A stretch of 64,000 bases of DNA from Centroscyllium fabricii (lineage: Eukaryota), in contig JBNRSN020000001.1 in assembly GCA_051313645.2 (NCBI GenBank), forward strand, positions 260,896,001 through 260,960,000, read 5' to 3'. Below the pieces are notes generated by a model. It was not told where the DNA came from. It ran no database searches and worked only from the letters and a program-made list of their open reading frames with translations. Made by a program: the position numbers and the translations under genes. Position 1 is the first letter of the stretch. Each line of letters starts with the position of its first letter. Shown here piece after piece: positions 7,656 to 64,000 of the stretch.

Positions 7656-8045
7656 TTACATGGGGGCCCCACAAGGCTGTGTGCTGAGCCCCCTCCTCTA
7701 CTCGCTCTTCACCCGCGTCTGTGCGGCTGTCCGCGGCTCCAACACGATCAAGTTTGCGGACGACACCACGGTAGTTGGCCAGATTGTGCTAATTGTGTAA
7801 ATACCACTGTAAATAGTTGATGGCACCTTGGTATTGTATTGTAGGCCAGGTCAGCCACACCCCTAACTCCTCCCCTCAGGTCGGAGCATATAGGTGAGGG
7901 CTGCCCTGCCCCCGCTCATTCTTCTCCTTGAACTCATCAGGAGACCAGCTCCATTGTTAGTTAATAAAAGCCTGTAGTTTAGGTAACTACTCGTCTTTGC
8001 GTTTTAATTGACGATACATCAATGTTATTAACTAAATTTTAAAAC

Positions 8046-11000
8046 ATGGAGAGTAACGCAGTGAAACCGGATCGCCTCCACATAAATCCTCAGGCACCCG
8101 ATGCTGCTAACGACTTCGAACACTGGTTTAGCGTGGTTGAGGCCTACATGAAGGCCGTAAAGGCTACGAGTGATGAGGACAAACTCCAGGTACTCTCATC
8201 ACGGATCAGCGGCCGGGTGTACTCTTTTATCCGCGGCCTCAAGACTTACTAGGAAGCGGCCAAGAAATTAAAGGACTGCTACATGTGCCCGGCCCATGTG
8301 GTCTATGCCAGGCATGTTCTGGCGACCAGAAGACAACGACTCGGTGAGTCAAATGAACAGTTTCTACTAGTGCTCCAAGCCCTCGCACGGGCCTGCGACT
8401 GCCAGGCAAGGACAGCGGAGGAAGAGGCGAATCTCCCAATCCGAGATGCCTATGTGGCTGGACTCAGGTCCAGCCAGGCCCGCCAGCGGCTGGTGGAGCA
8501 GGACACACTGTCGCTTGAGTCCGCGATAACGGTTTCTAATGCGGTGGACGGAGCGCTTCGAAAACTGGAGGCGTACGGAGATCACGGCTCCCACTGTACC
8601 CCTGACCCCTGGGTGACACAGCGACAGGCCGAGACCCCCACGATGGCAGCGGCGACTGCGAAGACACCGGCGGGGCACAGATGCTACTTCTGCGGCCAAG
8701 GAAAGCACCCGCGGGCGCAGTGCCCTGTGAAGAATGCGACCTGCGCGCGGTGCGCGAAGAAGGGGCACTACGCGAAGGTGTGCAAATCCAGCCCAGCCTC
8801 CACCTCCAGACCCAACAGCGCGGCCTGCGAGAACAGCGATGCCACTCCATGGCTCCAGGTACGGTGTTGCAGCACGACCCAGCAGCGGTCAGCCGGTGGT
8901 AAATCGCGAGCGCCTCAATCCCCTTTAACTGTACGGCGGAGGCCGGCCGCGCGCGCGGCACAGGTGCTGCCACCTCAAACGCGACCGCGACCGGCCATGT
9001 GCGACCCCCTGGTGCCGCCATCTTGTTCACCGTGTTCGGCCGCGTGCGAACCACGGGCGCCGCCATCTTATCCACAGCGGTCGGCCATGTGCGACCCGCC
9101 GCCGCCGCCATCTTGTCCACCGCTGTCGGCCGCATGCGAACCACGGGCGCCGCCATCTTATCCATAGCGGTCGGCCATGTGCGAGCCCCCGGCGCCGCCA
9201 TCTTGTCCACCGCGGTCGGCCGCGTGCGAACCACGGGCGCCGCCATCTTATCCACAGCGGTCGGCCACATGCGAACCACAGGCGCCGCCATCTTATCCAC
9301 CGGTCGGCCGCGTGCGAACCACGGGCGCCCCGCCATCTTCTCCACAGCAGTCGGACACGTGCGCATTGCCAGCGCTGCCATCTTCTGAGCGGCCATCTTG
9401 CCAACTGCCCCGGCCGGGGCCCCAGCAAGCGGAGGGCCCCCACTCACACACATACACTTCGGCCTCAGCCACCGTCGATCAGGCTAGGCCGCACACCTTG
9501 TCCAACTCCATGATGGGGATTAAGGTGGACGGGCACGCCACTAGCTGCCTGTTCGACACCGGTAGCACAGAGAGCTTTATACATCCCGACACAGTGCGGC
9601 GCTACGCACTGCAGACCCAGCCCACGCACTACCAAGTCTCCCTTGCCTCAAAGTCCCACACGGCGGACGTCACCGGCTACTGCAGCGTCACGCTCACGAT
9701 CAGGGACCGCATTTACCGCAACTTTTAAGTTGTACATACTCCAGCAGCTGTGCGCCCCAGTCTTACAGGGACTGGATTTCCAGTGTCACCTGAAGAGCGT
9801 GACGATGGATTTCGGTTGAACCCTGGCCCCCCTCACCGTCAGTAGCCGGGACAATCGCAACTTAACACGGAGCTCGACTTGCGGCCTGTCCACATTAAAA
9901 GTCGACCCCCCCTCACTGTTCACCAATCTCGACCCTAAATGCAAGCTCATTGCTACCAAAAGTCGGCGTTACAGTGCAGGGGACCGGGCGTTCATCAGGT
10001 CAGAGGTCGAGCGCATGCTGAAAGAAGGGATAATTGAGGCCAACACCAGCCCCGGGCGGGCCCAGGTCATGGTGGTTAAGACGGGCGAGAAACTGCGCAT
10101 GGTCATCGACTATAGCCAGACGATTAACCGCTACACCGGGCTCGACGCCTACGCCCTCCCCCGCATCTCGGATATGGTAAACTAGATCGCCCAGTACAAG
10201 GTCTTTTCCACAATCGACCTCAAGTCGGCGTATCACCAACTCCCCATGCGGAAATCCGACCGCCAGTACACCGCCTTCGAGGCGAACGGCCGGCTCTACC
10301 ACTTTCTCCGGGTCCCCTTCGGTGTGACCAACGGGGTGTCGGTGTTCCAGAGGGAGATGGACCGCATGGTTGACCAGAACGGGTTGCAGGCCACCTTCCC
10401 CTACTTGGACAACGTGACCATCTGCGGCCATGACCAGCAGGACCACGATGCCAACCTCGCCAAATTCCTGCACATGGTGAAACGGCTGGACCTAACATAC
10501 AATAAAGACAAGTGTGTCTTTAGTACGGATTGGCTCGCTATCCTCGGATACGTGGTGGAAAACGGAGTCCTCGGCCCCTACCCACAGCATATGCACCCCT
10601 TGCAAGAGCTGCCCTTACCTCACAACCCCAAAGCCCTGAGGAGATGTCTAGGGTTCTTTTCTTATTACGCGCAATGGGTCCCCCAGTACGCGGATAAGGC
10701 CAGACCTCTCCTCAAGGCCGACGTCTTCCCCCTCTCGGAAGAAGCCCAAACGGCATTCGCTCGGATCAAGGAAGACATCATCAAGGCGACCATGCACGTC
10801 GTTGATGAGTCCATTCCCTTCCAGGTGGAGAGTGACGCTTCGGACTTTGCCCTTGCCGCCACCCTGAACCAGGCAGGCAGGCCCATAGCGTTTTTCTCCC
10901 GGACCCTACAGGGACCCAAAACTCGCCACTCAGCGGTGGAAAAGGAGGCCCAGGCCATCGTGGAGGCAGTGCACTACTGGCGTCATTACCTGGCCGGTAA

Positions 11001-12257
11001 GCGTTTTACCCTGCTCACCGACCAGCGGTCGGTGGCGTTTATGTTTAATAATAAACAACGGGGTAAGATCAAGAATGATAAGATCCTTCGGTGGCGGATC
11101 GAACTCTTGACTTACGAGTACGACATTCTTTACCGCCCAGGCAAGCTCAACGAACCCCCGGACGCACTGTCCAGGGGAACGTGCGCCAGCGCCCAGCTTG
11201 ACCGGCTGAAGGCCCTCCATGATCGCCTCTGCCACCCGGGTGTCACCAGACTCGCCCACTTCGTCAAATCCCTTAGCCTCCCCCTACTCCATCACGGAGA
11301 TAAAGGCTATGACCAAAGAGTGCCCTGTCTGTGCCGAGTGCAAACCCCAATTCTACAGGCCAGACACCGCACGTCATCAAGGCCACCCACCTCTTTGAAC
11401 GCTTGAGCGTGGACTTCAAAGGCCCCCTCCCCTCCACTGACCGCAAATCGTATTTCCTTACGGTCATAGACGAGTTCTTACGCTTCCCCTTTGCCTTCCC
11501 CTGCCCAGACATGACGAGCGCAACGGTAATCAAACACTTCACCATGCTGTTCGCCATTTTCGGTCTCCCCAGCTAAATCCATAGCGACCGGGGGTCGTCG
11601 TTGATGAGCGACGAATTGCGTCAGTTCCTGCTTCAGAAAGGGGTTGCCTCAAGCAGAACGACCAGTTACAACCCCCAGGGGAACGGCCAGGTAGAAAGGG
11701 AGAACTGGACCATCTGGAAGGCGGTCAACCTGGGCCTGAAGTCCAGAGGCCTTCCAGTTTCCCGTTGGCAGGAGGTCCTCCCAGACGCGCTCCATGCCAT
11801 CCGCTCTCTGTTGTGTACCGCCACTAACTCCACACCTCATGACCTGTTGTTTTCCTTCCCCAGGAAGTCGACTTCGGGGACAGCACTCCCGCTGTGGCTC
11901 ACAGCGCAGGGGTCAGTATTACTTAGAAAGCACGTCCGCGGCCACAAGACCGACCCCCTGGTGGAACGGGTGCACCTGCTCCACGCCAACCCGCAATATG
12001 CTTACGTGGCATTCCCGGACGGGCGCGAGGATACAGTCTCGATCATGGACCTGGCGCCCGCCGGGAGCACTGGGGCAGAACCCCCGGTCGAGCCTCAGCC
12101 CGACCAGCCACCACCCACCGAATACTGGCCCCCATATATACACACACCCTCAACACCACCGATCGACGACCCGGGATCGGACACCGTACCGCTGGCACCG
12201 TTGGCGGAGAGCTCGATCCCGGCCCTGCGACTGGCACCACCATTGCCGGCACCCTAG
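8046..12257 (+). pseudogene. gag-pol of element A (several stops and frameshifts)
   Basis: CYFCGQGKHPRAQC and CARCAKKGHYAKVC knuckles, LFDTGS protease, RT YLDN (10402-10413), RNase H ESDAS/EKEA/TDQR, integrase HHCC and VDF..SDRG..QVE. Confidence 0.92.
8990..9400 (+). repeat. 45-nt (15-codon) tandem repeat in the Gag-PR linker of element A
   Basis: GCCATCTT recurs at 9017, 9062, 9107, 9152, 9197, 9242, 9287, 9332, 9377 (exact 45-nt period) and 9392; alternating 90-nt higher-order unit. Confidence 0.92.
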
Positions 12258-14156
12258 CGGTCCCCCAGGCAGACACGACTGCCGGAGAGACTAAGAACGC
12301 AATGCTAATTATTAATGGACATATAGAGTTTTTTTTTACCAGAAGGCACGTTCACCCCGCCGGACTTGTTTTTAAAGAAGGGGTGAATGTGGTAATCGTG
12401 TAAATACCACTGTAAATAGTTTATGGCACCTTGGTATTGTATTGTAGGCCAGGTCAGCCACGCCCCTAACTCCTCCCCTCAGGTCGGAGCATATAGGTGA
12501 GGGCTGCCCTGCCCCTGCTCATTCTTCGCCTTGAACTCATCAGGAGACCAGCTCCATTGTTAGTTAATAAAAGCCTGTAGTTTAGGTAACTACTCGTCTT
12601 TGCGTTTTAATTGACGATACGTCACAGATCACCAACAACGATGAGTCAGCCTACAGGGACGAGATTCAGCGCCTTATGGGATGGTGTGCTGATAACAACC
12701 TGGCACTGAACACCAAGAAAACCAAGGAGATCATAGTGGACTTCTGGAAGACTAAAAGCAGAAGACACACCCCCATCTTCATCCAAGGGGCTGAGGTGGA
12801 AAGGGTGTCCAGCTTCAAGTTCCTCGGGGTCCACATCTCGGAAGACCTCTCCTGGTCACTAAACACCTCCTCTCTGATTAAGAAGGCCCAATAGCGCCTG
12901 TACTTCCTAAGGAAGCTGAAAAAAGCCAAGCTGTCATCCGGCATCCTCACCAACTTCTACCGCTGCACAATCGAAAGCATACTGACAAACTGCATCACAG
13001 TCTGGTATGGGAACTGCACCATCTCGGACCGGATGGCCCTGCAGCGGGTAGTCAAAACTGCCCAACGAATCACCGGCACCCAGCTACCGTCAATCGAACG
13101 CACCTACCTCAAACGTTGCCTACGGAGGTCTCTGAACATTATTAAAGACCCCACACACCCCAGCCACAGTCTGTTTGCCCCCTGCCCTCCGGGAGATGCT
13201 ACAGATCAATCCGTACCCGCACAACCAGATTCAAGAACAGCTTCTTCCCCAGGGCTGTCAGTCTCCTGAACTCTAACAAAAAACTCCAGTATCTGCACAC
13301 CTGAAATGTACTTTAGTGTATGAAATTGCATGTAACTTATTTGCACTACTCTCGGGAGCGGCGAGTCTTCGTTTCGTTGTATTGTACTAGTACTCTGCAA
13401 TGACAAAAAAACTTGAATTGAATTGAGTGGTAACCCCCAGGATGTTCAGAAGTGAAAGTGAGATATTAGACACAGTCAAATTGCAAAGGTATATGGGGAG
13501 TGGGTAGGAGGTGGGTGCTGGATTTGGATGATCAGCCATGATATTGTCAAAATGGCGGAGCAGGCTCGAAGGGCCGAATGGCCTACTCCTGCTCCTATCT
13601 TCTGTGTTTCTGTGTAAGAAAGATAGACCACGAGCAGTGGAAATTGGAAATAGAAACTGAAAACCCACAGTAGGTCAGTCAGCACCTGAAGAAGATTCTG
13701 GGTGAGAATCTTTGTCAGAACTGGGTAAACAAAAGTTACAGTTTCGGCATCAGGACAGCATCTGAGTTGCTTGGATTAGATTAGTCACTCTGAGGAACTG
13801 TTCCTATGTCTGGATCCAGTGGATTGAAATGATTTTCGGCTTTGGCTCAAATAATTGTCAAATGTCTGACAATCACAGCGACCCCTTTGTGTTACTGACC
13901 CCCAAAATTGATGAGAGTGTGGCGGTACGCCGGCTGGCGAATCCGCCTCGGGAGTACTGCGGGGCATAGCCCCGCCCACCGGGTGACGCGATGACGTCAC
14001 CACGTCTCTCGGCGTGATGAGGTCACGAGCGGCGGGTAGTTTAAATAAGCCTGCTCCTCGTGGTTCAGTCTCTTTCTTGTTATGTAGTGTTAATTAAACA
14101 AGTTTTATCTCTCTCTCCGGCTCCTGTGTGGTTCTTGGGTCCTGCAAGCGCTACAG

Positions 14157-14169
14157 TGGTGACCCCGAC
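14157..14169 (+). promoter_or_regulatory. Primer binding site complementary to tRNA-Trp 3' end
   Basis: TGGTGACCCCGAC 1 nt after the 5' LTR of element B. Confidence 0.85.
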
Positions 14170-14246
14170 TTGGAACGTCTTCCAAGGAGAAAACAGCAGC
14201 TACAGGACTGAAAACCAAGCAGCCTCAGAACACTTTCAAAAACAAC

Positions 14247-17200
14247 ATGACTTCCAGAAACCAAGCTTCTCGTTCACAAGGACTTGGCCAGAACCCCGGG
14301 CACAGACTAACTCTACCGGAGTTCTGGGAGCAACGCCCGGCAGCGTGGTTTATGTGTATAGAGACCAGCTGCCGCACACATGGCATCCAGGGGGACGACC
14401 GCTACGACCTGGTCTTTTCGGCCCTACCACAATCGACGATCGATCGGATGTGGTCGAAGCTACAGCGCGTGCCCGCAGCAGGCAGGTATGAATTTCTCAA
14501 GGCCGCGCTACTTAAAAAATTCACCCCCTCCCAGTTCGAGCGCGACTGCCAACTCGTTAACCTCCCCAAACTCGGGGACGCAGACCCATCGGACCTTTGG
14601 GGCCAAATGCAAGTGCTCACCGCCGATCCCGCCTCCCTGTTCGGCACCATATTCCTCCTTAAACTGCCCCCCTCCATCAGACCGGCCCTGGCGGCCTTCT
14701 GCCACCGGAGCGGGGACGAGCTAGCCGAGGAAGCCGACAGGCTCATGGCGGCCGAGCGCACCCGCTCCGCCACGTGCGACCTCACTGCCGCGGCAGTCGA
14801 GCCCACCCACTCGCCCCCCAGGTCCAACCCAACGCCTGAACCCAGACCCCCGCGCCCTCCCAAGCAACCGCTCCATCAAGCACCGGTTGGTGCTACTACC
14901 ACACGCGGTTCGACACCAAAGCGCACCGCTGCGTCCAGCCCTGCACGTTCAAGCCACGGCCCGGCCCAGCCCCCACTATGTCTGTAGGACACACCGGAGC
15001 ACTGCTCTACGTCACAGACAACGGCACAGGCCTCCGGTTCCTCTGCGACACAGGCGCACAGCACAGCATCGTGCCAGCCTCCCCCGCAGAAGCCAAAAAA
15101 GGCACCCGGGGCCCGCCACTCGCGGCGGCCAACGGCTCGGACATCAAAACGTACGGCACCCGCAAGCTAACAATCCAGCTTGCCGGCCACACGTACCAAT
15201 GGGAGTTTGTCACGGCCCAGGTCACTTCACCCCTCCTCGGGGCAGATTTCCTCTGCGCCCACGGCCTCCTGGTCGACATGACCCGGCGCCGCCTGGTCGA
15301 CATTCAAAATATGTCGACCATCCCATGCTCCACAGGGCCCGCACTCCTGGCCCACGCGGCGGCACAATGCCGTGCCCGGAACTCTGACGCGTACGGCTCG
15401 CTCCTCGCTGAGTTCCCAGCCCTTACCAATCCCACCTTCACCGCCCGCACGGCCAAACACGGGGTGGAACACTTTATCACCACCACCGGCCCTCCCGTGC
15501 ATGCCCACGCCCGCAGACTGGACCCGCCCAAGCTGGAGATTGCGCGCACCGAGTTCCGCACTATGGAGCAACTCGGCATAATCTGCCGCTCCAGCAGCCC
15601 CTGGGCCTCTCCCCTCCACATCGCCCCCAAGCCGGGCGGGGGTTGGCGCCCCTGCGGCGACTACCGCCGCCTCAACAATGCCACCACCCCGGATAGGTAC
15701 CCCATACCCCACATCCAGGATTTCTCCGCCAGGCTAGCGGGTTGCACGGTCATCTCCAAGATCGACCTGGTGCGTGGCTACCACCAGGTCCCGGTGCACC
15801 CGGCGGATGTCCCTAAGACAGCCGTAATTACCCCCTTCGGCCTGTTCGAGTTCCTCAGGATGCCCTTTGGACTCAAAAACGCGGCCCAGGCCTTTCAGCG
15901 CCTAATGGACAGTTCATTTTCGTCTACTAAGACGACATCCTCGTGGCCAGCACCTCCCCCCAGGAGCACCTCCTGCATCTCAGGACCCTGTTCCAGCGCC
16001 TGACCGAACACGGCCTCATATTAAGCCCCTCTAAATGCAAATTCGGCCTAGATATTATAGACTTCCTGGGCCACCGCATTTCCAAAACCGGGGCCATACC
16101 CCTGCCCTCCAAAGTGCAGGCAGTTCAGGAATTCCCCCGCCCGCACTCCATTAAGGGCCTGCAGGAGTTCCTCGGGATGGTTAACTTCTATAACCGCTTC
16201 ATCCCAGGGGCAGCCGCTCTCATGGCCCCCCTATACCAGGCCACACGCGGGCAGTCCGGCAAAACTGCGGTCGAGTGGACGGCCGACGCCGCCACCGCGT
16301 TTACCGCAACCAAGACCGCCCTGGCCAACGCCACTCTCCTAGCCCACCCCAGGCCCAACGCCAGAGTGGCCCTCACCACTGACGCCTCCGACCACGCTAT
16401 CGGGGCCGTTTTCGAACAGTGGGTGGGCGGGCAACTCCTGGCAGCCCCTGGCCTTTTTCAGCCGGCAACTATGGCCCCCGGAGGTCAAGTACAGCGCCTT
16501 CGACAGGGAGCTCCTCGCTCTGTACCTCGCTGTGCGCCATTTTCGCTTCCTCCTGGAGGGCCGTCCCTTCACAGCTTTCGTCGATCATAAGCCGCTCATA
16601 TTTGCAATGGCTAAGATCGCCGAACCCTGGTCGGCCAGGCAGCAGCGCCAACTCGCAGCCGTGTCGGAGTTCACTACCGACATCCAACACATCTCCGGCC
16701 GCGACAACGTGGTTGCTGACTGCCTGTCACGTCCCACCATTAACGCCACCCAAATGGCGGTCGACTACGCCAAGCTGGCAGCAGACCAGCTGGCAGACCC
16801 AGACCTGCTCGACCCAGCAGAAAACCTCCCTGGCCTACGCTTGGCCAACATCGCACATGGCCCCGCGGCCACCGTAGTCTGCTGCGACGTATCGTTACCG
16901 CAGCCCAGACCCGTCGTCCCCCACGCATGGAGGCGGCGCATTTTCGAGACCCTCCATGGCCTGTCCCACCCCGGCACCCGTGCCTCCATTAAACTTATTT
17001 CGGCCCGTTTTGTGTGGCGCGGCCTACGCAAAGACGTCCGTGCCTGGACCAACACCTGCATCGCCTGCCAGCGCGCCAAAGTGCACAAGCACATCAAGGC
17101 CCCGCTGGAAACGTTTACCGTGCCGGCCAGGCGCTTCGACCACGTCCATGTCGATCTCGTCGGACCACTGCCGCCATCCCGGGGCCACACACACGTCATG

Positions 17201-18056
17201 ACCATGGTCGACCGCAACACTCGCTGGCCAGAAGCAGTCCCCCTGGTTTGCTACCAACACCACGGACCTGGCCAGGGCGTTCATCGCGACTTGGGTCGCC
17301 CGTTTCGGCGTGCCCACCGACATCACTTCGGACAGAGGTCCCCAATTTACGTCGGCACTATGGGCGGCCATCGCCCATGACCTCGGGGTGACCCTGCATA
17401 GAACCACCGCGTACCACCCACAAGCTAACGGGCTCTGCGAAAGGTTCCACCGCTCCATGAAAGCATCCCTGCGGGCCAGCCTCAAAGATGCATCATGGAC
17501 AGACCGTCTTCCTTGGGTACTGCTCGGACTACGCTCGGCGGCCAAAGAAGATTTGCACGCCTCAGCAGCGGAACTCGTCTACGGCCAGACTTTAAGAGTG
17601 CCGGGCGAGTTTCTCGCCGAATCAAACGCTCCCTGGTCGGCCGACCAGTTCCTCAAGGACTTTGCCAACCCGGCACGAGCGTTCACACCCTTACCGGTGG
17701 CCCGGCATGGAGAGCCGGCGGCACGTGTACCGGACAGCATCAAGCACGCAAAGTACGTGTTCGTCCGGCACAACGCCCATCGTTCACCTCTACGGCCACC
17801 TTACGACGGCCCCTACAGAGTGCTTCGGGCGGGATCCAAAGCTTTTCAGCTACAGCTGGGCAATCGGACAGAAACTGTCTTCATCGACCGGCTGAAACCA
17901 GCACACATAATAGCGGGCGACGCGACAGTCCCCGCCCAACCACCTCAACGCGGACGCCCTCCCGCACCAACACCCGCCCACACTCCACCGCAGCACCAGG
18001 AGCAACGCACGACACGTGCCGGCCGCATCTTACGGCCACCACGACGCCTCGCATAA
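14247..18056 (+). pseudogene. gag-pol of element B (frameshifted; RT motif broken: TAC TAA GAC GAC near 15925)
   Basis: FLCDTGA protease; PWASPLH, GDYRRLN, RMPFGL RT; TTDAS RNase H; HGLSHPG..CIAC, HVDLVGP, TSDRG integrase; GPY motif. Confidence 0.92.
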
Positions 18057-18499
18057 GACTCTTTTTCCTCTCGGACGGATTCTGGGGGGAGCTGTGTGGC
18101 GGTACGCCGGCTGGCGAATCCGCCTCGGGAGTACTGCGGGGCATAGCCCTGCCCACCGGGTGACGCGATGACGTCACCACGTCTCTCGGCGTGATGAGGT
18201 CACGAGCGGTGGGTAGTTTAAATAAGCCTGCTCCTCGTGGTTCAGTCTCTTTCTTGTTATGTAGTGTTAATTAAACAAGTGTTATCTGTCTCTCCGGCTC
18301 CTGTGTGGTTCTTGGGTCCTGCAAGCGCTACAAGAGCATAATTGCCCTCTTCTCCTCTCCCAGTGCAAAATATATACAGGTCTAAGTGGTGCTCTCCCTG
18401 AATATTCTTGTGGATGAAAATAAATTTACGGCTTTCTTATTCGGGAGAAGCAACGTTCCACCTTTGGCATTCTGCAGCTTGGCGTCGACAGAACCATCG

Positions 18500-31494: not shown

Positions 31495-31880
31495 GGGCGG
31501 CACAGTGGCGCAGTGGTTAGCACTGTTGTCTCACAGCACTGGAGACCCGGGTTCAAATCCGGCCTCGGGTACTATCTGTGTGGAGTTTGCACATTCTCCC
31601 CGTGTCTGCGTCCGGTTTCCTCCCACAGTCCAAAGATGTGCGGGTTAGGTTGATTGGCCAGGATAAATTGACCCTTAGTGTTAGGGGGATTAAATATGTG
31701 GGGTTACGGGGATAGGGTGGGATATGTGTCGGTGCAGGCTCGATAGGGATATGGGGAGAAAGCAGGGACAGGGTACTGGGTTTGGATGATCAGCCATGAT
31801 CTCATTGAATGGCGGAGCAGGCTCGAAGGGCCGAATGGCCTACTCCTGCTTCTATCTTCTATGTTTCTATGTTTCTATGT
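31495..31880 (+). mobile_element. HE1-type V-SINE
   Basis: Head, V-domain with a small deletion, tail. Confidence 0.9.
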
Positions 31881-32585
31881 AACAACAGAAAATGCTGGAG
31901 AAACTCAGCTGGCCAGGCAGCATCAGTGGAGAGAGAAACAGAGTTAACGTTTCAGGTCGATGACCTTTCTTCAGAACTGGAGAAACCAGGAGAGGGGATA
32001 GATTTGAAAGCTAGTAGGGGTTGGGGAAAGGGGGAGGGGCTGAAAGAACAAAGGGAAGGTCAGCGACAGGATAAAAGGCGGGGAGATTGAGAGACATTAA
32101 GAGAAATTCAAGGAACACAGGATGGCTCGAAAGGTGTGAACGGCTCTGGCAGAGAAGCAAAAAGAAAAAAAGAAATAAGCCCAGGCGAAAGTGTGGATTG
32201 AAAAAGAGAGAAAATATATATATATATATATATATAAAAAAGTGTGGTACGGGCCGAGGTTATGATCTAAAATTGTTGAACTCTATGTTTAGTCCAGAGG
32301 GCTGTAGAGTGCCCAAGCGAAAGATGAGGTGCTGTTCCTCGAGTTTACGCTGGGCTTCCGTGGAACAATGCAACGGGCCACAGACAGTGAGGTCTGAATG
32401 GGAGTGAAGCGGAGAATTTAAGTGACAGGCCACCGGCAGCTCAGGTGTCCCCCCTTACCGACTGAACAGAGGTGTTCCGCAAATCGGTCACCCAATCTGC
32501 GTTTGGTCTCCCCGATGTAATGAGTTTTTGCAGCGTTTTTAGTTGTTGTTTCAGATTTCCAGCATCCGCAGTATTATGCTATCGC
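31881..32585 (-). mobile_element. Penelope-like element 3' portion with inverted terminal piece
   Basis: Minus-strand GETKRRLGDRFAEHL (GIY-YIG region) near 32470-32515; terminal repeat aaaatgctggagaaactcagc... Confidence 0.75.
31942..31978 (-). ncRNA. Minimal type I hammerhead ribozyme motif of the Penelope-like terminal repeat
   Basis: Minus strand AGUU-CUGAAGA-A-AGGUC(AUC)GACCU-GAAA-C-GUU-AACU: stem I, core, stem II, palindromic ACGU stem III. Confidence 0.65.
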
Positions 32586-35516: not shown

Positions 35517-35792
35517 CCCAGTATAGACCTGACGTTACGGGTTAGTGCCGCATCAGACAGTATTAGGCGGTTCTAAGTGCCAAGTCATAAAATGATCGAA
35601 CAATTGACATACAGAAAACTCTTGTTTAAACGGCACCTAACTAATTCTCTATTAACTGGCAAAATTCTCATGCCGAAAACAACACCTCAATAACTACTAG
35701 ATTGATTCCCGGGATGGCCGGACTGACATATCAAGAAAGACTGGATCAGCTGAACTTGTACTCTCTGGAGTTCAGAAGAATGAGGGGGTGAA

Positions 35793-38700
35793 TGTGGTAA
35801 ACCACTCTTTCCTGTATATATCCACCCTGTTATGTATATATTTGTATTACTGTAATCGTACTATTCTCCATGTTGTACCATAGCCCATTGTGTGCGATTA
35901 CCTGGACATGCCCATGCTGGCTCCGCCTGCGACTCCTCCCTCCCGGGAGGAGGTACATAAGCGGCCGTCTCCCATCCCCCTGCCATTCCTGGGGACGGTC
36001 GACTAGCTGGTGCATGTCCACATTTGGCGAATAAAAGCCACATTGTTTTACCCTCTTAACTACTCGTCCACGAGGTCGTTATTTCGGTCACAATTTTATT
36101 CGCTAAATTTGACGATGGACGCAATGCTCAAGCCAGCAACGTTCGAATTGGATCCCCGGACACCAGGCGCATCAAATACATTCTCGCACTGGTTCGACTG
36201 TTTTGATGCGTACATGAGAGCGAACGCAGCGGTCGTCAGGACCGAAGAAGACAAACGGCGGCTCCTCAACGCCCGGGTGGGCCCTCAGGTGTACTCCATG
36301 ATCGTAGACGCATCATCATACTTGGATGCAATCAGGATCCTCAAAGCGGAGTACAACCGGGCACCCAACATCGTCCACGCCAGACACATTCTGGCCACCA
36401 GAAAACAGCAACCCGGTGAGTCCAGCGTGGAATTTCTACGCGCGCTGAGAGTACTATCACGGGCCTGTGACTGCAGAGCGCAATCGGCCCAGGTCCATGT
36501 GGACAGTCTGATCAGAGACGCATACGTGACAGGCCTCAGGTCGGACTATATCAGACAAAGGCTGTTAGAATAGAACGGCCTTGACCTGCAGGCAACAGCG
36601 GACCTGGGCAACGCGCTGGATGTGGCATCACTACACTTGTCGTCATACTCCGGCAACTATACGGGCCCAGCCCCGACAACTTGGACAACGCCGGCACAAC
36701 GGCCGGCGGAAGAAATGATCGCAGCCGCCCACGCTAACACGGCAAAATGCTACTTCTGTGGGCAGCCTCAGCATCTGAGACGCAGCTGCCCGGCAAGAGA
36801 CGCGGCCTGCTCGAAATGTGGCAAAAAGGGACACTACGCTAAAGTCTGCAAGGCGACTGCAGCGCCAAAACCGAAACCGGGCAGTGCCGCGTGTGGGACA
36901 TGGGGGCAGCCATATTGGACTCAGCCATCCCCCACTCAGCTCACCGCGTGGCAGCAGACGCCATATTGGACCCAGCCACCCCCTCCGCAGTACACCACAT
37001 GGCGGCAGCCATCTTGGGACCAGGCCCTGGAGGACTTCTCTTCGGATCAAGAGGAATCGACCGATCCGATATTAGCATCAGTTACCTTGGATCAGAACAA
37101 GGCTCAACCACTCGGGCAGTCGATGATGCCGGTGGGAGTGAACGGACAAGACGTCGAGTGCCTCTTCGACAGCGGGAGCACGGTGAGTTTTGTCCATCCT
37201 GAAACAGTAAGGCGCCTCTCCCTTAAGGTTATGCCAGCGAGCCAAAAGATCTCAATGGCTTCCAAGTCGGAATCTGCGGACGTCTCCGGGCGTTGCGCAG
37301 TGGCTCTAACGGTATGGGGCGTGCACTTTAGTAACTTTAACTTTTTCGTGCTGCCGCAGCTCTGCGCTCCATTGTTATTGGGTCTGGACTTCCAGTGCCA
37401 TCTCCAGAGCGTTACCATGTCGTACGGTGGGCCCCTTCCCCCACTCACGGTCAGCAACCGCCGCTCGGCGCAGCACCCTCGGCGCGCTACCTGTGGCCTC
37501 TCGACCCTTAAGGTCGCCCCTCCCTCACTCTTTGCTAACCTCACCCCGGACTGCAAGCCCGTCGCCACCAAAAGTAGGCGCTACAGTGCTGGGGACATGG
37601 ACTTTATCAAGTCCGAGGTGAAGCGCCTCCTGAAGGAGGGGGTTATCGAGGCCAGTAATAGCCCCTGGAGGGCGCAGGTAGTGGTGGTGAAGACTGGAGC
37701 TAAGAACCGGATGGTAGTGGACTATAGCCAGACCATTAACCGGTTCACCCAGTTAGACGCATACCCCCTCCCCCGGATAGCGGACATGGTAAATCAGATC
37801 GCGCAGTTTCGGGTTTTCTCAACCATAGATCTGAAGTCCGCATATCGCCAGCTCCCCATTCGCCCAGAGGACCGTCTCTATACCGCTTTCGAGGCTGACG
37901 GTCGAATCTACCACTTCCTCAGGGTCCCGTTTGGCGTCACGAATGGGGTCTCGGTCTTCCAAAGGGAGATGGACCGAATGGTCGATCAGTACGGGCTGCG
38001 AGCCACTTTCCCGTACTTCGATAATGTGACCATCTGCGGCCACGATCAGCAGGACCATGACGCTAACCTCCAGAAATTTCTCCACACCGCCAAAACACTC
38101 AACCTGACCTATAACACAGAAAAATGTGTGTTCAGGACCACCCGCCTCGCCATCCTCGGCAGTGTTGTGGAGAATGGGGTCATCGGTCCCGACCCGGACC
38201 GCATGCGCCCCCTCCTGGAGCTCCCCCTCCCCCACTCCCCCAAGGCCCTTAAACGGTGCTTGGGTTTCTTTGCCTATTACGCCCAGTGGGTCCCCAATTA
38301 TGCGGACAAAGCTCGCCCACTGCTTAAATCAACCTCATTTCCCCTGTCCGCAGATGCCCGCGCGGCGTTCTGCGGCATTAAGGACGACATTGCAAAGGCA
38401 ACGATGCACGCTGTGGACGAGTCCGTCCCGTTCCAGGTAGAGAGCGATGCATCGGACTTTGCCCTGGCCGCCACCCTTAACCAGGCGGGCAGACCCGTGG
38501 CCTTCTTCTCACGTACCCTCCAGGGCCCCGAGACCCGTCACTCCTCAGTCGAGAAGGAGGCCCAGGCCATTGTTGAAGCAGTGCGTCACTGGAAGCACTA
38601 CCTGGCCGGCAAACGATTTACCCTGCTGACTGACCAACGCTCAGTCGCTTTTATGTTCAACAACAAAGAGCGGGGTAAAATCAAGAATGACAAGATACTG

Positions 38701-40426
38701 AGGTGGAGAATTGAGCTCTCCGCGTTCAATTATGATATCTTGTACCGGCCCGGGAAATTCAACGAACCCCCAGACGCCCTGTCCCGCGGTACCTGTGCCA
38801 GCGCACAGACAGACCGACTACAAACCCTGCACAATGACCTCTGCCACCCGGGGGTCACCAGGTTGGTTCACTTTGTGAAGTCCCGCAACCTCCCCAACTC
38901 CATCGAGGAGGTCAAGACCATGACCAGCAACTGCCAGGTCTGTGCGGAGTGCAAGCCGCACTTCTATTGGCCAGACCGGGCGCATCTGATCAAGGCCACC
39001 CGCCCCTTTGAACGACTCAGCGTCGATTTCAAAGGGCCCCTTCCCTCCGCCAACAGGAACGTGTACTTCCTTAACGTCATTGACGAGTACTCCCGCTTCC
39101 CCTTTGCCATCCCCTGCCCGGACATGACCTCCGCCACCGTCATCAAAGCCCTCCACAGCATCTTCTCTCTGTTCGGCTACCCCAGCTACATCCATAGCGA
39201 CCGGGGGGGCCTCCTTTATGAGTGACGAGCTGCGTCAGTTTCTGCTAGCCAAAGGCATCGCTACTAGCAGGACTACCAGCTATAACCCCCGGGGGAACGG
39301 ACAGGTAGAGAGGGAGAACGCCACTGTCTGGAAGGCCATCCTGTTAGCCCTACGGTCTAAAGGCCTCCCAGTCTCCCGCTGGCAGGACGTCCTCCTGAAG
39401 TGCTCCACTCCATCTGGTCCCTCCTTTGTACGGCCACTAATGCCACCCCTCAGGAGCGACTTTTTGCCTTCCCTAGGAAGTCGGCTTCCGGGACCTCGCT
39501 GCCATCGTGGCTACTATCCCCGGGACCAGTCCTACTCCGGAAGCATGTGAGGGGCCACAAGGCAGATCCCCTGGTCGAACGGGTCCACCTCCTGCACGCC
39601 AATCCCCAGTACGCCTACGTAGCGTACCCCGACGGGAGGGAGGACACCGTGTCCATCAAGGACCTGGTGCCAGCGGGAGCCCCCAAACCCAGCCCCGCCC
39701 AGCAGCCCGCACCCCCACGACGGCCAGCCACTCCACCCGGGCCACCGACGCCAAGGTACGCTCCGCGGCACGAGAATCCAGCACCACGGTTCGTCCACCC
39801 GGCACCTGTAGGCAGCACGGCATGGCCTCCAGCATGGCTCCACAGTACACGCCTCCTAGAGTCAGACGACGAGGGAGAGAGCGCGCCACCTACTGTCACC
39901 GCAAGGGCACCAACGAGGAATCAACCAACGCAACCGGCCATCGCTCGTCCACCGGCATCATCACCAATGGTGCAACCAACCCAACCGGCCATTCCACGAC
40001 CGCCGACACCACCAGCGGTGCGCCGATCAACCAGGATTACCAGGCCGCCTGAGCGACTTAATCTGTAAATTAAAAGAACTGTCGCGTTCACCCCGCCGGA
40101 CTTTTGTTTTAAAGAAGGGGTGAAATGTGGTAAACCACTCTTTCCTGTATATATCCACCCTGTTATGTATATATTTGTATTACTGTAATCGTACTATTCT
40201 CCATGTTGTACCATAGCCCATTGTGTGCGATTACCTGGACATGCCCATGCTGGCTCCGCCTGCGACTCCTCCCTCCCGCGAGGAGGTACATAAGCGGCCG
40301 TCTCCCATCCCCCCTGCCATTCCTGGGGACGGCCGACTAGCTGGTGCATGTCCACCTTTAGCGAATAAAAGCCATATTGTTTTACCCTCTTAACTTCTCG
40401 TCCACGAGGTCGTTATTTTGGTCACA
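35793..40426 (+). mobile_element. Ty3/Gypsy element C (same lineage as A), full length, in a STAG2-like intron, inserted in a CR1
   Basis: LTRs 35793-36092 and 40126-40426, TSD GGGGG (35784-35788, 40427-40431), PPT aaagaaggggtgaaa. Confidence 0.96.
36115..40068 (+). pseudogene. gag-pol of element C (one TAG at 36571-36573, frameshifts near 39205 and 39397)
   Basis: 867-aa open stretch with two CCHC, LFDSGS, RT YFDN (38014-38025), RNase H, integrase. Confidence 0.93.
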
Positions 40427-57027: not shown

Positions 57028-59117
57028 TGACGTATCGTCAATATCTCTTAATAAAAGACTGGACGAGTAGTTACCGTAACTATAGGCTTTTAATAACTTA
57101 CTTTGGAGCTACCCTCCGAACGAACATCAGAACAGAATGAGGGAGCCTCGGTCAGTCCTCACCTATAAAGGCCTCACCTGGGGGAGGAGTTAGAGGTGTG
57201 GCTGACCTGGCTCCACAACAGTATTACAGGCTGTGTATCCCACACAGCCAATTGTTGGCAACAATAATGCAGTGGTAAATATATACAATATGGGTTACCA
57301 CATTCACCCCTTCTTGAAAATTTTAAGTCCGGTGGGGTGAATGGACCGAGCAGTTCAATATGAGCTTGTCCAGCGGTCGTGTCAGCCTGGAGGACTGCCG
57401 GAGTTTCGGTGATGGTTTCTCGTGGTCCGTGCTGCTCGAGTCCGTTGGTGGTGACAGCGGCTCTGGTGCCGTGGTTTCAGATGATGGTGGTCTCAGATGG
57501 TCCGAGCTATCGGAGTGGTGGTCTTGGGCTGGCCACGGCTGGGGCTCTGGAAACCTCGGAGGCCATCGTAGGTGTAGGGGGTGTTCTGGGTACTGTGGCT
57601 GGGCGGGCTGCTGCCCGACCAGGGGCTCTGCTGCGGTGCTTCCTGCGGGCGCCAGGTCCCTGATGGATACGGTGTCCTCACGCCCGTCCGGGAACTGTAC
57701 ATATGCGTATTGTGGGTTCGCATGCAGGAGCTGCACCTTGTCCACCAGGGGGTCGGTCTTGTGACCACGGACGTGTCTCCTAAGGAAGACCGGCCCCGGT
57801 GTCGTGAGCCATGGAGGAAGAGCTGTCCCCGAAGTCGACTTCCTGGGGAAGGAAAAAATCAAGTCATGAGGGGTGGCGTTAGTGGCCGTACACAGGAGAG
57901 AGCATATAGAATGCAGCGCGTCTGGGAGGACTGCCTGCCAATGGGCCACTGGAAGGCCTGTGGACTTCAGAGCCAGGGTGACCGCCTTCCAGATGATCCC
58001 ATTCTCCCTTTCTACCTGGCCGTTCCCCCGGGGGTTATAACTGGTCGTTCTGCTCGTGGCAACCCCTTTCTGGAGCAGAAACTGACGCAGTTCATCGCTC
58101 ATGAACGATGACCCCCGGTCGCTATGGATGTAGCTGGGGAGACCGAAGATGGCGAACAGCGTGGTGAAGTGTTTTATCACCGTTGCGCTCGTCATATCTG
58201 CGCAGGGGAAGGCGAAGGGGAAGCGGGAGAACTCATCTACGACCGTGAGGAAGTATGAGTTGCGGTCGGTGGTGGGGAGGGGGCCATTGAAGTCCACGCT
58301 GAGACGTTCAAAGGGGCGGGTGGCCTTGATGAGGTGCACCGTGTCTGGCCGGAAAAATTGGGGTTTGCACTCGGCGCAAACAGGGCACTCTCGGGTCATA
58401 GCCTTGATCTCCGTGATGGAGTAGGGGAGGCTACGGGATCTAACGAAGTGGGCGAGTCTGGTGACACCCGGGTGGCAAAGGCGGTCGTGGAGGTCCTTCA
58501 GCCGGTCTAGCTGGGCACTGGCGCACGTTCCCCTGGACAGTGCGTCCGGGGGTTCATTGAGTTTACCTGGTCGGTAAAGAATGTCGTACTCGTAAGTCGA
58601 GAGTTCGATCCGCCACCGCAGGATCTTATCATTCTTGATCTTACCCTTTTGTTTATTATTAAACATAAACGCCACCGACCGTTGGTCGGTGAGAAGGGTA
58701 AAACGCTTACCGGCCAGGTAATGACGCCAGTAGCGCACGGCCTCCACGATGGCCTGGGCCTCCTTTTCCACTGCAGAGTGGCGGGTTTCGGGTCCCTGTA
58801 GGGTGCGGGAGAAAAACGCTACGGGCCTGCCTGCCTGATTCAGGGTGGCAGCAAGGGCAAAGTCCGAAGCGTCGCTCTCCACCTGGAAGGGAATGGATTC
58901 ATCAACAGCGAGCATTGTTGCCTTGATGATGTCTTCCTTTATCCGGGCGAATGCCGTTTGGGCTTCTACCGAAAGGGGGAAAACGGCAGCCTTGAGGAGT
59001 GGTCTAGCCTTGTCCGCGAATGTGGGACCCATTGTGCGTAATAGGAGAAAATTCCTAGGCATCTCCTCAAGGCTTTGGGGTTGTGAGGTAGGGGCAGTTC
59101 TTGAAGGGGTCGCATAC
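57028..59117 (-). mobile_element. Ty3/Gypsy element D (close to A): 3' LTR 57028-57302 plus RNase H-integrase; rest displaced beyond the window
   Basis: 579-aa ORF 57323-59062; LTR tgtggtaac...gatacgtca; PPT aagaaggggtgaa on minus strand. Confidence 0.93.
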
Positions 59118-60042: not shown

Positions 60043-63000
60043 TGTGGTGATATTGGCTATAACACCAACTATGTGTATGTACATGCCTTAGGGCGTGTCT
60101 ACTCTTGCCCAGCCAGACTTGGGAGACCTGTACCTGGAGGACCTCGGGTAGGCCACGCCTCTGACCCTGGGGGTATAAAGGTCAGCACTCGTGGGTTCTG
60201 ACCTCCTCTCTACTGTACTGTACTAACGATACCTGTGATCCCTTACGCTTGTTCTAAGTTTATTAAAGCCTATGTTAACTCGCTCTCTGACTCAAGTAAT
60301 TGATGGTATCAATTTAATAAACTTAGATCGTCGCTAAAATCCAAAAATGGACCGAATTCTGGCTGTCCCGATCTTGGAAATTGATGCGACTGCTCCCGAT
60401 GCCGAACGCCGGTATAAACACTGGGAACAACAGCTAAGGAGCTATATCGACGAAGTGAAAGAGACCGCTTCAACTGATCAGCAGAAGAGCCGAATTCTAC
60501 ACTGCAGAATCAGTGCTGACCATTACCACCTCATCGAAGGGGAGTCAGATTACGAACAGGCCATGAAGAAGCTGAAAGAACACTTTGTGCCAGCAGCCAA
60601 CGCTGTTCACTTAAGGCACTTGTTGACTCAGAGGGCCCAGAGCGCCGAGGAACCGGGCGCCAAATTCGTGAAAGAAATTTGTGCGCTGACCCGAGATTGC
60701 GCCCCTGGCCCCCTGACGGCGGACGAACACTACAACGAACTGGCACTGGACGCTCTGGTAAGAGGGGTATACTCCCCATATATCAGGGCCCGACTGCTAG
60801 AACGGGATGAGCTAACGTTAAAAGAAGCAGCCTCCCTGATTGTAAATCTGGACAATGCAGATCGGAGATCCACCACGTATGGCTAACCAAGCGCGCCTAC
60901 GTGGGCATCCCCAGCCCCAACTCCTACCCCAGCGCTAACGGCAGCGGCAGGAAGAAGCAGGCCTGAAACCAACCAAAAGTGTTTCTTTTGCGGAAAAGCT
61001 AGGCACTCTAGACTGCGCTGCCCAGCCAAAGATGCTACGTGCTCGGGGTGTGGAAAGAAGGGGCACTATGCCGCGATGTGCCGCGCAACAGGGCAGAAAA
61101 AGAAGGCAGCCCCCATCTGCAGCGGAGCGAGAGCGGCACCACGTTCCTACTACACGGAGGTAGATGACCGCGAGGGAGCACCACGAGGCGGCGGCCATCT
61201 TGAGGCCACAGCTAGGAGGAGCGGCCATCTTAGTTCATTACCACGAGGCAGCGGCCATTTTGAGGCCACAGCTAGGAGGAGCGGCCATCTTAGTTTATCA
61301 CCACGAGGCAGCGGCCATTTTGAGAGTCTTCGACTTGACTCCGACCCCGAATATTCGGATGAAGACGACTCATCAACCGTGCTGGCGTCCATCACTTTGG
61401 ACCAATCAAAACCCCATGAACTGCAGAAATCAATGATGGACGTCCAGGTAAACGGACAAAACTGTAACTGTTTATTTGATACGGGTAGTACTGATAGTTT
61501 TATTTCCCCCGAGACTGCTGACCGTCTTCACCTGTCGATCCGCCCCTGTTTAAAACGCATCGCCTTGGCGGCGGACTCAGAATCGGCGCAGGCCGTGGGG
61601 TGTTGCGTAGTATCACTTGTAGTTCGCGGGGTAAAATACTGTAATTTTAAACTGTTTGTGTTACCCCACTTGTGCGCCCCTGTGTTATTGGGGCTCGATT
61701 TCCAGAGCCACCTGCAGAGTGTCACCTTGGCATACGGCGGCCCTCTCCCACCCCTGACGGTCGAGTCGAGTACCCCCCGTGAGCGCCCGCTTTGTGGGCT
61801 CACCACTTTACGGATCTCACCCCCGAAACTGTTCGCGAACCTCACGCCGGACTGCGCACCGATTGCCTCAAAGAGCAGGCGGTATAGTGCTGCAGACCGG
61901 GCGTTTATTGGCACCGAGGTGAAGCGACTGTTGGCAGAGGGGGTGATTGAAGCCAGCCGCAGCCCCTGGAGGGCCCAAGTAGTAGTGGTAAAGACGGGGG
62001 AGAAGAACAGGATGGTGGTCGACTACAGTCAGACCATAAACCGGTTTACACTCCTCGATGCGTACCCCCTTCCCCGGATCTCGGACATGGTAAATGAAAT
62101 TGCCCAATACAAAGTCTATTCGACTATAGACCTTAAAGCGGCATATCACCAGGTCCCAATCCTCAGAGAGGAGCGCCCCTATACCGCTTTCGAAGCGGAT
62201 GGTCGCCTCTATCAGTTCCTTCGGGTTCCCTTCGGAGTGACGAACGGAGTGTCCGTCTTCCAGAGGGAAATGGATAGAATGGTAGACGAACACGGGCTCA
62301 GGGCCACCTTTCCCTATCTAGATAACGTCACTATCTGCGGCCACTCGGACGAGGACCACGACGAGAACCTCGCTAAATTTTTGAAAACAGCCAAATCCCT
62401 GAATTTGACCTACAACAAAGAAAAATGTGTTTTCCGCACCAGACGCCTGGCTATTTTGGGCTGTGTGGTGGAAAACGGGTTAATCGGCCCGGACCCTGAC
62501 CGAATGCGCCCGCTGATTGAGTATCCCCTTCCCAAGACACCCAAAGCTCTAAAGCGGTGCATGGGGCTGTTCGCGTATTACGCGCAGTGGGTCCCGAAAT
62601 TTGCGGACAAAGCCCGGCCTCTGATGCGGGCCACTGTTTTTCCCCTGTCGGCAGCGGCGCTAACGGCTTTTAAGCAACTTAAAGCCGATATAGTAAAAGC
62701 TACAATGTCCGCCATTGATGAGGACGTGCCTTTCCAAGTGGAGAGCGACGCGTCCGACTTCGCCCTGGCGGCGACCCTGAACCAAGCAGGCAGACCCGTT
62801 GCCTTCTTTTCCCGTACCCTCTCGGGCTCGGAAGCACGGCGTTCCTCCGTGGAAAAAGAGGCCCAAGCCATTATCGAAGCGGTGCGCCACTGGAGACACT
62901 ACCTGGCCGGTAGAAAATTTACCCTGCTCACCGATCAGAGGTCGGTAGCATTTATGTTTAGTAACACACAGCGGGGAAAAATTAAGAACGATAAGATCTT

Positions 63001-64000
63001 GAGGTGGAGGATCGAATTGTCCACCTTTAATTATGATATTTTGTACAGGCCAGGTAGACTCAACGAGCCGTCCGATGCACTGTCCCGCGGGACCTGCGCC
63101 AGCGTGCAGGCGGGCAGACTGCAGGCTCTGCATAATAACCTCTGCCACCCGGGGGTCACCCGCTTCTATCATTTTATCAAAGCCCGCAATCTACCGTATA
63201 GTATTGCGGAGGTTAGGGAGATAGTCAGGGATTGTCCGGTCTGTGCGGAATGCAAGCCGCAGTTTTTCCGACCGGACAAGGCACACCTGATTAAGTCCTC
63301 TCGGCCCTTCGAACGCCTTAGTATCGATTTTAAGGGCCCACTCCCGTCCACCGACAGGAATGTCTACTTCCTCACAGTCGTGGACGAATACTCTCGTTTC
63401 CCATTTGCGATACCCTGCACTGATATGACTGCTGCCACAGTCATCAACGCCCTCGCCCCGATATTCGCAATATTCGGCTTCCCCTCATTCATACACTCTG
63501 ACCGGGGGTCTGCTTTTATGAGCGACGAACTGCGCCAGTTCCTACTCGCGAGAGGAATCTCGTCGAGCAGGACAACGAGCTACAACCCCCGGGGCAATGG
63601 CCAAGTAGAGCGCGAGAATGGCACTGTCTGGAAGACGGTCCACCTGGCACTCAGGTCCAGGGGCCTTCCAGCCTCACGCTGGCAGGCGGTTCTCTCGGAC
63701 GCTCTACACGCCGTACGGTCGCTTCTTTGTACAGCGACCAACGCAACGCCGCACGAACGGATGTTTTCCTTCCCCAGGAAGTCCGTCTCGGGGATGTCGC
63801 TGCCGTCGTGGCTAGCCTCCCCGGGCCCAGTACTGTTGCGGCGCCATGTACGGCACTATAAGACCGACCCACTGGTCGACAGGGTACTCCTCCTCCATGC
63901 TAACCCGCAGTACGCCTATGTGGAGTTCCCTGATGGCAGGAAGGACACAGTCTCTATTAAAGACCTGGCGCCCGCAGGCGCCCCTGCGACCACAACTCCG
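60043..64000 (+). mobile_element. Ty3/Gypsy element E (A/C lineage), 5' LTR 60043-60311, runs off the window
   Basis: tgtggtga...gtatca LTR with TATAAA and ATTAAA; Gag starts 60347. Confidence 0.93.
60347..64000 (+). CDS. Single-frame gag-pol of element E, open except for one TAA at 60884-60886
   Basis: Gag ATG, CFFCGKARHSRLRC, CSGCGKKGHYAAMC, LFDTGS, YLDN (62315-62326) and terminal KDLAPAG all in the same frame. Confidence 0.85.

Follow-up and report, generated by a model that had tools for sequence, protein, structure and literature searches.

YxDN as the likely normal motif of an animal Ty3/Gypsy reverse transcriptase clade with a predicted self-priming leader

Working palm polymerases with a natural Asn in place of the second Asp of motif C are known among viral RNA polymerases, in which the motif reads GDN in mononegaviruses and ADN in birnaviruses. 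For reverse transcriptases (RTs), a three-aspartate rule has been taken as universal (PMC2148107). In Ty1 RT, the D211N mutant polymerizes and the D211E mutant does not; with D211N, kpol falls 223-fold, Mn2+ is preferred and transposition is blocked, and suppressors that map to RNase H restore transposition to 5–10% (PMC2148107). D211 was placed at the A-site metal, and Ty3 RT showed similar or greater flexibility at these sites (PMC2148107). A preliminary description of the DNA studied here had stated that the equivalent D-to-N change cripples HIV-1 RT and that in Ty1 it permits polymerization but blocks transposition, in agreement with that article. Tf1 and Tf2 encode an RT that cuts the self-primer out of R (PMC5341516, PMC4600332). 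Cigr-1 has two CCHC knuckles, an integrase after RNase H and a TANG protease flap, without GPY/F, chromodomain or env (PMC2774666).

In the open-access literature, to which our search was confined, no account of a naturally occurring YxDN clade of Gypsy elements came to light; the Ty1 article was the one relevant paper on the motif, and the literature on self-priming that we found consisted of fungal, plant and general papers. The motifs of the clade described below were not found in the searched supplements of PMC6238403, PMC8556966, PMC6317226, PMC2774666 and PMC3601003, as far as these were accessible. Here we follow three YxDN elements from one stretch of Centroscyllium fabricii DNA (64,000 nucleotides; hereafter the window) into the rest of the genome and into other animals. 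Taken together, the results make it likely that the motif normally reads YxDN in a large animal Ty3/Gypsy clade that has been spreading recently, whose RT would work with either Asn or Asp and for which self-priming is predicted with either residue.

Three YxDN elements in one window

Three elements on the forward strand, A, C and E (Table 1), carry the motif in the pol frame: YLDN in A (TACTTGGACAAC at 10402–10413), YFDN in C (TACTTCGATAAT at 38014–38025) and YLDN in E (TATCTAGATAAC at 62315–62326), just as the preliminary description had reported. The motif Asn aligns with the second Asp of the YLDD of Ty3 RT (PDB 4OL8), and the remaining two catalytic Asp are intact in all three RTs. An AlphaFold model (pLDDT 87), whose top structural match is Ty3 RT 4OL8, would place the Asn at the start of the palm strand following the motif turn. 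Over 160 RT codons, A, C and E share 72–75% of their DNA, 78–82% of their protein and 43–48% of their third codon positions. Because of this low identity they are separate families, which bears out the earlier view of three divergent families; the similar LTR pairs and clean target-site duplications (TSDs) that had been noted for A and C were likewise found (Table 1).

By all structural criteria tested except the motif, the clade is Ty3/Gypsy: its elements have TG...CA LTRs, TSDs of 4–5 bp, a polypurine tract and the order protease–RT–RNase H–integrase; A, C and E lack the canonical three-aspartate YxDD. Among solved RTs, that of E is closest to Ty3 (3.6e-44). Pfam recovered the full pol order in C and E and, in the pieces of A that were scanned, the protease, RT and RNase H domains. 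Element E is complete past the window, with its 3' LTR at window-equivalent positions 64348–64616, a single mismatch in 269 LTR bases and the TSD AGATG. Element A, inserted within a LINE RT, has pol stops at 9511, 9817, 10183 and 11404; in C the frame changes near 39210, beyond a stop at 36571; and E has a stop at 60884. As all three window copies are broken, they are on their own no proof of function, which we therefore judged from the family. Element D belongs to the same clade and lacks the RT motif region.

Table 1. Positions of elements and element features in the window
Feature	Position	Strand	Details
Element A, Ty3/Gypsy	7785..12624	+	LTRs 7785–8021 and 12388–12624; TSD CAGAT; LTR pair 97.0% identical
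A, predicted self-primer end	7957..7969	+	LTR segment with AATAAA; ends before GCC
A, leader, predicted primer-binding site	8023..8035	+	complementary to 7957..7969; 11 bp, one mismatch near junction
A, first catalytic Asp (FSTIDLK)	10216..10218	+	intact
Element B, different Gypsy clade, in-window control	13918..18332	+	broken Y*DD at 15925–15936; TGG-type primer site
Element C, Ty3/Gypsy	35789..40426	+	LTRs 35793–36092 and 40126–40426; TSD GGGGG; LTR pair 97.3% identical
C, LTR segment with AATAAA	36022..36036	+	pairs with leader; 15 bp, one G-U
C, leader, predicted primer-binding site	36094..36108	+	complementary to 36022..36036
Element D, same clade, 5'-truncated	57028..59110	-	RNase H, integrase, 3' LTR 57028–57302; 5' end approximate
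Element E, Ty3/Gypsy	60043..64000	+	5' LTR 60043–60311; extends beyond window edge
E, LTR segment with ATTAAA	60253..60267	+	15 Watson–Crick pairs with leader
E, leader, predicted primer-binding site	60313..60327	+	complementary to 60253..60267

Several other features of the window were recorded. In element C, four extra bases, TGAA (35789–35792), lie between the TSD GGGGG and the LTR TG; they are the same bases as the end of the polypurine tract, which suggests that the integrase of C may have used an outer TG/CA end. A simple motif check of 35 own-genome loci gave no second clear case of this type. The spacer between gag and protease contains coding tandem repeats, of 45 nt in A (8984–9363) and of 30/60 nt in E (61179–61324). 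Many CR1-like LINE 3' ends (repeat families D1 and D8) are spread over the window, for example at 31788–31882, together with several LINE RT fragments with FADD motifs.

Asn and Asp in the genome and across animals

We counted the motif throughout the 7.2-Gb genome with a pattern in which only the fourth codon varied. Asn occupied this codon in 212,968 matches, Asp in 295 and Ser in 456, giving Asn 99.6% of the three together. The Ser count served as a mutation control, Asp and Ser each being one A-to-G change from Asn; with Asp matches fewer than Ser matches, Asp copies are at the mutation background. The genome thus lacks an amplified YxDD master with this motif context, the pattern being blind to a helper in another context. 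Most of 30 Asp copies compared were 89–98% identical to a sampled Asn copy, and most were at least as close to such a copy as to another Asp copy, the best Asp–Asp identity among the 30 being 97.0%. If all of the roughly 213,000 matches were full length, they would amount to up to roughly 1 Gb, which is an upper estimate.

A second Gypsy clade of this genome, which resembles element B and has the motif FVYLDDILVAS, served as a control. It gave 89,397 matches, 87,154 with Asp (97.5%) and 2,243 with Asn (2.5%). Its YLDN codons, mostly GAC AAC among 100 matches listed, most likely arose by CpG decay, and their 2.5% share can serve as a yardstick when a single YxDN call has to be judged.

The family of element E is young. 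All 150 scored matches to its 160-amino-acid RT core, E itself among them, were 100% identical, and 27 of the first 30 lay inside open frames of at least 1237 amino acids. In 15 copies chosen by hand from the 150 (plus strand, long frames), the motif was YLDN throughout, the LTRs were 98.9–100% identical and perfect 5-bp TSDs were present in 14. With 4,465 exact E leaders in the genome, this Asn family made thousands of insertions. Two of its copies (L043:1-899 and L045:1-1092) are inserted within pol of a different family belonging to this clade.

These data bear on the possibility that YxDN copies are dead, with CpG decay of GAC GAC as one route, or owe their spread in trans to a YxDD master. 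The window copies are indeed broken, all three of them, and decay of this kind does yield YLDN in the YxDD control clade, but there it accounts for 2.5% of matches, against the near-exclusive Asn of the YxDN clade in this genome, in which Asp is rarer even than Ser. The GAT AAY codons of C and E can be reached from Asp by no CpG route, most of the sampled Asp copies are no closer to one another than to a sampled Asn copy, and the Asn family of E retains long open frames and near-identical LTRs. We consider this explanation largely refuted and give it very little credence. The preliminary description had read the motif as a functional variant rather than decay and had asked whether an active family with a YxDD consensus might have mobilized these copies; no amplified YxDD master was found, and the genome counts, the control clade, the young Asn family and fixation at the level of families strongly support its reading. 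That YxDN is real and functional at the family level seems to us very likely.

Homologues from other animals carry both residues. The first 120 had YxDN in 100 cases, YxDD in 18 and a broken motif in 2, and 218 cluster representatives had Asn in 171, Asp in 45 and Lys in 1 (1 not covered), with the other two catalytic Asp retained in 215 and 217 of them. Named hosts of Asn elements include sharks, rays, corals, an anemone, a gorgonian and a fluke, and those of Asp elements a damselfly and a whipworm; the nearest named relatives come from sharks and rays. Ten clusters at 90% identity were checked, of which eight had Asn, two had Asp and none was mixed, indicating that Asn and Asp are both family-level states.

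For phylogenies we used FastTree on query-anchored rows with the motif column left out and one outgroup, a design that leaves the direction of change unfixed. For the first tree, 13 of 211 rows were dropped (low coverage or broken motif) and the remaining 198 were reduced to 140 at 90% identity. N/D changes numbered at least 12 on a 139-row tree and at least 14 on a 220-row tree, compared with a mean of 52 for shuffled labels, and Asp groups were nested among Asn groups. Asn is thus near-fixed in this genome, whereas other animals have multi-member families fixed for Asn and others fixed for Asp, the two states alternating on the tree. A search of viral contigs gave no match, and the ESM Atlas returned generic RT clusters only. 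Seven matches (L187–L193) lay in contigs filed as bacterial metagenome-assembled genomes; most of these are evidently animal retrotransposon contamination.

Pairing between leader and LTR

No TGG tRNA-type site was found in the leaders of A, C and E, and each leader is instead complementary to a segment of its own LTR (Table 1). In these three elements the LTR segment ends at AAA^GCC, and clade-wide the junction reads AAA^RCC. The duplex begins one base past the LTR CA in nearly all cases, and its length ranges across the clade from 11 to 17 bases. Among 20 further loci of this genome, 12 had an LTR pair; in a shuffle test, pairing was significant in 8 of these (p<=0.03) and not in the other 4 (L198, L203, L207 and L213). 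Most LTR-defined loci of the invertebrate type were also significant, and neither of the two control elements showed significant LTR–leader pairing (p=0.12 for element B).

Across 40 distinct leaders, positions 1–13 were paired in 36–40, with several pair types at each position, as left by compensatory changes, and at positions 5–13 pairing reached 8.75 of 9 within an element versus 5.7 between elements; these counts are inflated, as 15 of 47 elements were admitted because a scan had already found pairing in them, with the register set to give the most pairs. AATAAA or ATTAAA was present in 30 of the 40 paired segments, the other 10 having no canonical signal.

Two loci that are 98.4% identical (L119:3006-3250 and L121:2990-3250) differ by a matched change on both sides of the duplex: the two LTRs and the leader all carry it. 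Such a pattern would arise if the primer site is templated by the primer, or under tight selection. When we looked for such primer copying in the E family, one paired base yielded 0 variants against 4,465 exact leaders, in a comparison that had no unpaired-base control. A short hairpin often starts at the AAA^RCC junction (for example in L107, L113, L125 and L148) and is possibly part of a cleavage structure.

Of 13 own-genome leaders, 10 have a TATA-like box 81–85 nt upstream of the junction; in the E family the distance is 93 nt, and in 2 leaders no box was found. Outside this genome, no fixed TATA spacing was seen. From the own-genome spacing, RNA would start about 50–55 nt before the junction, which predicts a primer of about 50–55 nt.

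Drawing on the analogy with Tf1, we propose that the leader folds back onto the LTR and pairs with the segment that has its end at AAA^RCC. Cleavage at the junction or no more than a base away, probably by the element's own RNase H as in Tf1, would free a 3'-OH, and minus-strand strong-stop DNA would then extend back only to RCC. In the 5' LTR, the poly(A) signal would be hidden by this duplex as well. We predict Tf1-like self-priming at AAA^RCC with good, though not full, confidence.

Tolerance of Asn and comparison with known systems

The preliminary description had suggested that YxDN may be linked to the unusual priming, a link that found no specific support here. A looser pairing scan was positive for 28 of the 44 Asn loci scanned, for 7 of the 17 Asp loci and also for 9 of 63 reversed controls; many of the loci in which no pairing was detected (16 of 44 with Asn, 10 of 17 with Asp) may be truncated. 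Six paired Asp loci (L118, L135, L137, L153, L156 and L167) come from three separate Asp lineages; in all six the junction is the conserved one, and so is its distance from RT. As these YxDD lineages share the self-complementary primer site, the type of priming appears to be a clade trait that is independent of the residue; this is the unlinked outcome that the preliminary description had named as counting against its view. Judged from the aligned leaders, pairing with compensatory changes is present in Asn and Asp lineages alike, and the residue seems to toggle while the predicted priming structure stays, both traits being found in one clade. A historical role of priming in allowing Asn is conceivable.

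The same change blocks transposition in Ty1, so tolerance here must have another source. Of the 14 columns with the strongest N/D association, not one changed together with the residue on 8–9 independent pairs, a comparison of low power, which makes any compensation likely to be clade-wide. Associations of columns with N/D in Fisher tests vanished on the independent pairs. Certain residues hardly vary, whether a row has Asn or Asp, and differ from those of Ty3 and element B, the two comparators. Relative to Ty3, E has PWRAQ (Ty3, CSSP), DYSQT (DYRT), TNGV (NAP), a Thr two past the Asn (Leu), Ile/Leu at the primer grip (Phe) and TDQ in RNase H (H of TDH); in DYSQT a conserved Arg is lost and one residue is inserted. 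The TDQ change is of interest because the Ty1 D211N suppressors map to RNase H. Of the compensatory changes that the preliminary description had postulated, candidates thus exist as clade-wide signature residues, and none that switches together with N/D was seen among the 14 columns.

We lean slightly towards a mechanism in which the two essential Asp carry out the metal chemistry, the Asn side-chain oxygen still makes contact, less strongly, close to metal A and the end of the primer, and clade-wide changes older than the toggling (PWRAQ, DYSQT, TNGV, Thr, Ile/Leu and TDQ) make Asn tolerable. By analogy, the natural D/N alphabet would fit the behaviour of Ty1 D211N and D211E.

Three further explanations concern the residue or the duplex. 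Asn might need no compensation at all, the enzyme simply being slower, Ty3/Gypsy RTs tolerating Asn and the state drifting or attenuating the element itself. The similar or greater flexibility of Ty3 RT (PMC2148107) and the absence of a residue that switches with N/D agree with this, but the 97.5% Asp of the other Gypsy clade in the same genome argues that tolerance is not general, and about 213,000 motif matches speak against strong attenuation; we consider it unlikely. A specific adaptation of Asn to self-priming, such as extension of an A-rich RNA primer in the fold-back, would account for two rare traits in one clade with Asn in the majority there (171 of 218). It sits badly with the six YxDD loci, which pair at the same place, and with a residue that changed at least 14 times, and we hold it to be quite improbable. 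The duplex, finally, might only hide the 5' poly(A) signal or aid packaging, with priming by something else. The canonical signals in 30 of 40 paired segments are in keeping with such a role, as is the predicted place of the segment, some 50 nt into the RNA rather than at its first bases, with cleavage itself a prediction. Against it stand the start of the duplex one base after the LTR CA, which is primer-site geometry, the position of the duplex in place of a TGG-type site, the fixed AAA^RCC junction and the retention of the duplex in the 10 leaders without a canonical signal. We give it a minor chance and favour self-priming.

The clade offers many natural Asn/Asp sister enzymes in one background, so that no engineered mutants are needed to ask what the residue does, and it bears on the open mechanistic question of why Ty1 D211N polymerizes yet cannot transpose. 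A pipeline that takes YxDN as the mark of a dead copy would give a wrong picture of an element that ranks among the most abundant in this genome. In a more far-reaching version, which we put forward tentatively as possible rather than probable, a pan-animal, non-chromovirus Gypsy clade would have an RT for which two carboxylates suffice for full efficiency in vivo, its third Asp freely exchangeable with Asn, and a form of self-priming of its own, in which a single duplex first covers the 5' poly(A) signal and is afterwards cleaved at that signal to give a capped primer of about 50 nt; this clade would be a major builder of a 7.2-Gb vertebrate genome. Apart from this version, the self-priming predicted here would be an animal, non-chromovirus example.

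Compared with Cigr-1, the clade shares two CCHC knuckles (86 of 95 relatives), the absence of GPY/F (0 of 132), of a chromodomain and of env, and an integrase after RNase H, a set that also fits an Osvaldo-clade element (PMC2774666). By a heuristic parse, the protease flap matched xANG in 0 of 108 relatives and read mostly MAST, MATS or LAST. On these table features, of which the shared ones are not diagnostic, we do not file the clade with Cigr-1.

A primer site complementary to its own LTR rather than to a tRNA is shared with Tf1, Tf2 and sushi, Tj1 and the plant elements Tcn1 and TAR (PMC5341516, PMC4600332, PMC6317226). Unlike the Tf1/sushi chromoviruses, the clade has no chromodomain detected by Pfam in the window elements or in the precomputed domains of relatives, and we do not file it as a member. 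Whereas the Tf1 self-primer is the first 11 nt of its RNA, the partner segment here usually includes the poly(A) signal, with a predicted end about 50–55 nt into the RNA.

The mononegaviral and birnaviral polymerases, in which Asn is fixed, are RNA-dependent RNA polymerases; here it is an RT and the Asn toggles. Ty3 RT is the best match in sequence and fold, and the Asn lies at the position of the catalytic motif at which Ty1 RT tolerates D-to-N, and not D-to-E, for polymerization (PMC2148107). In Ty1, however, D211N is a laboratory mutant that blocks transposition (PMC2148107), whereas in the clade described here Asn is the natural majority state, with about 2 x 10^5 motif matches in this genome.
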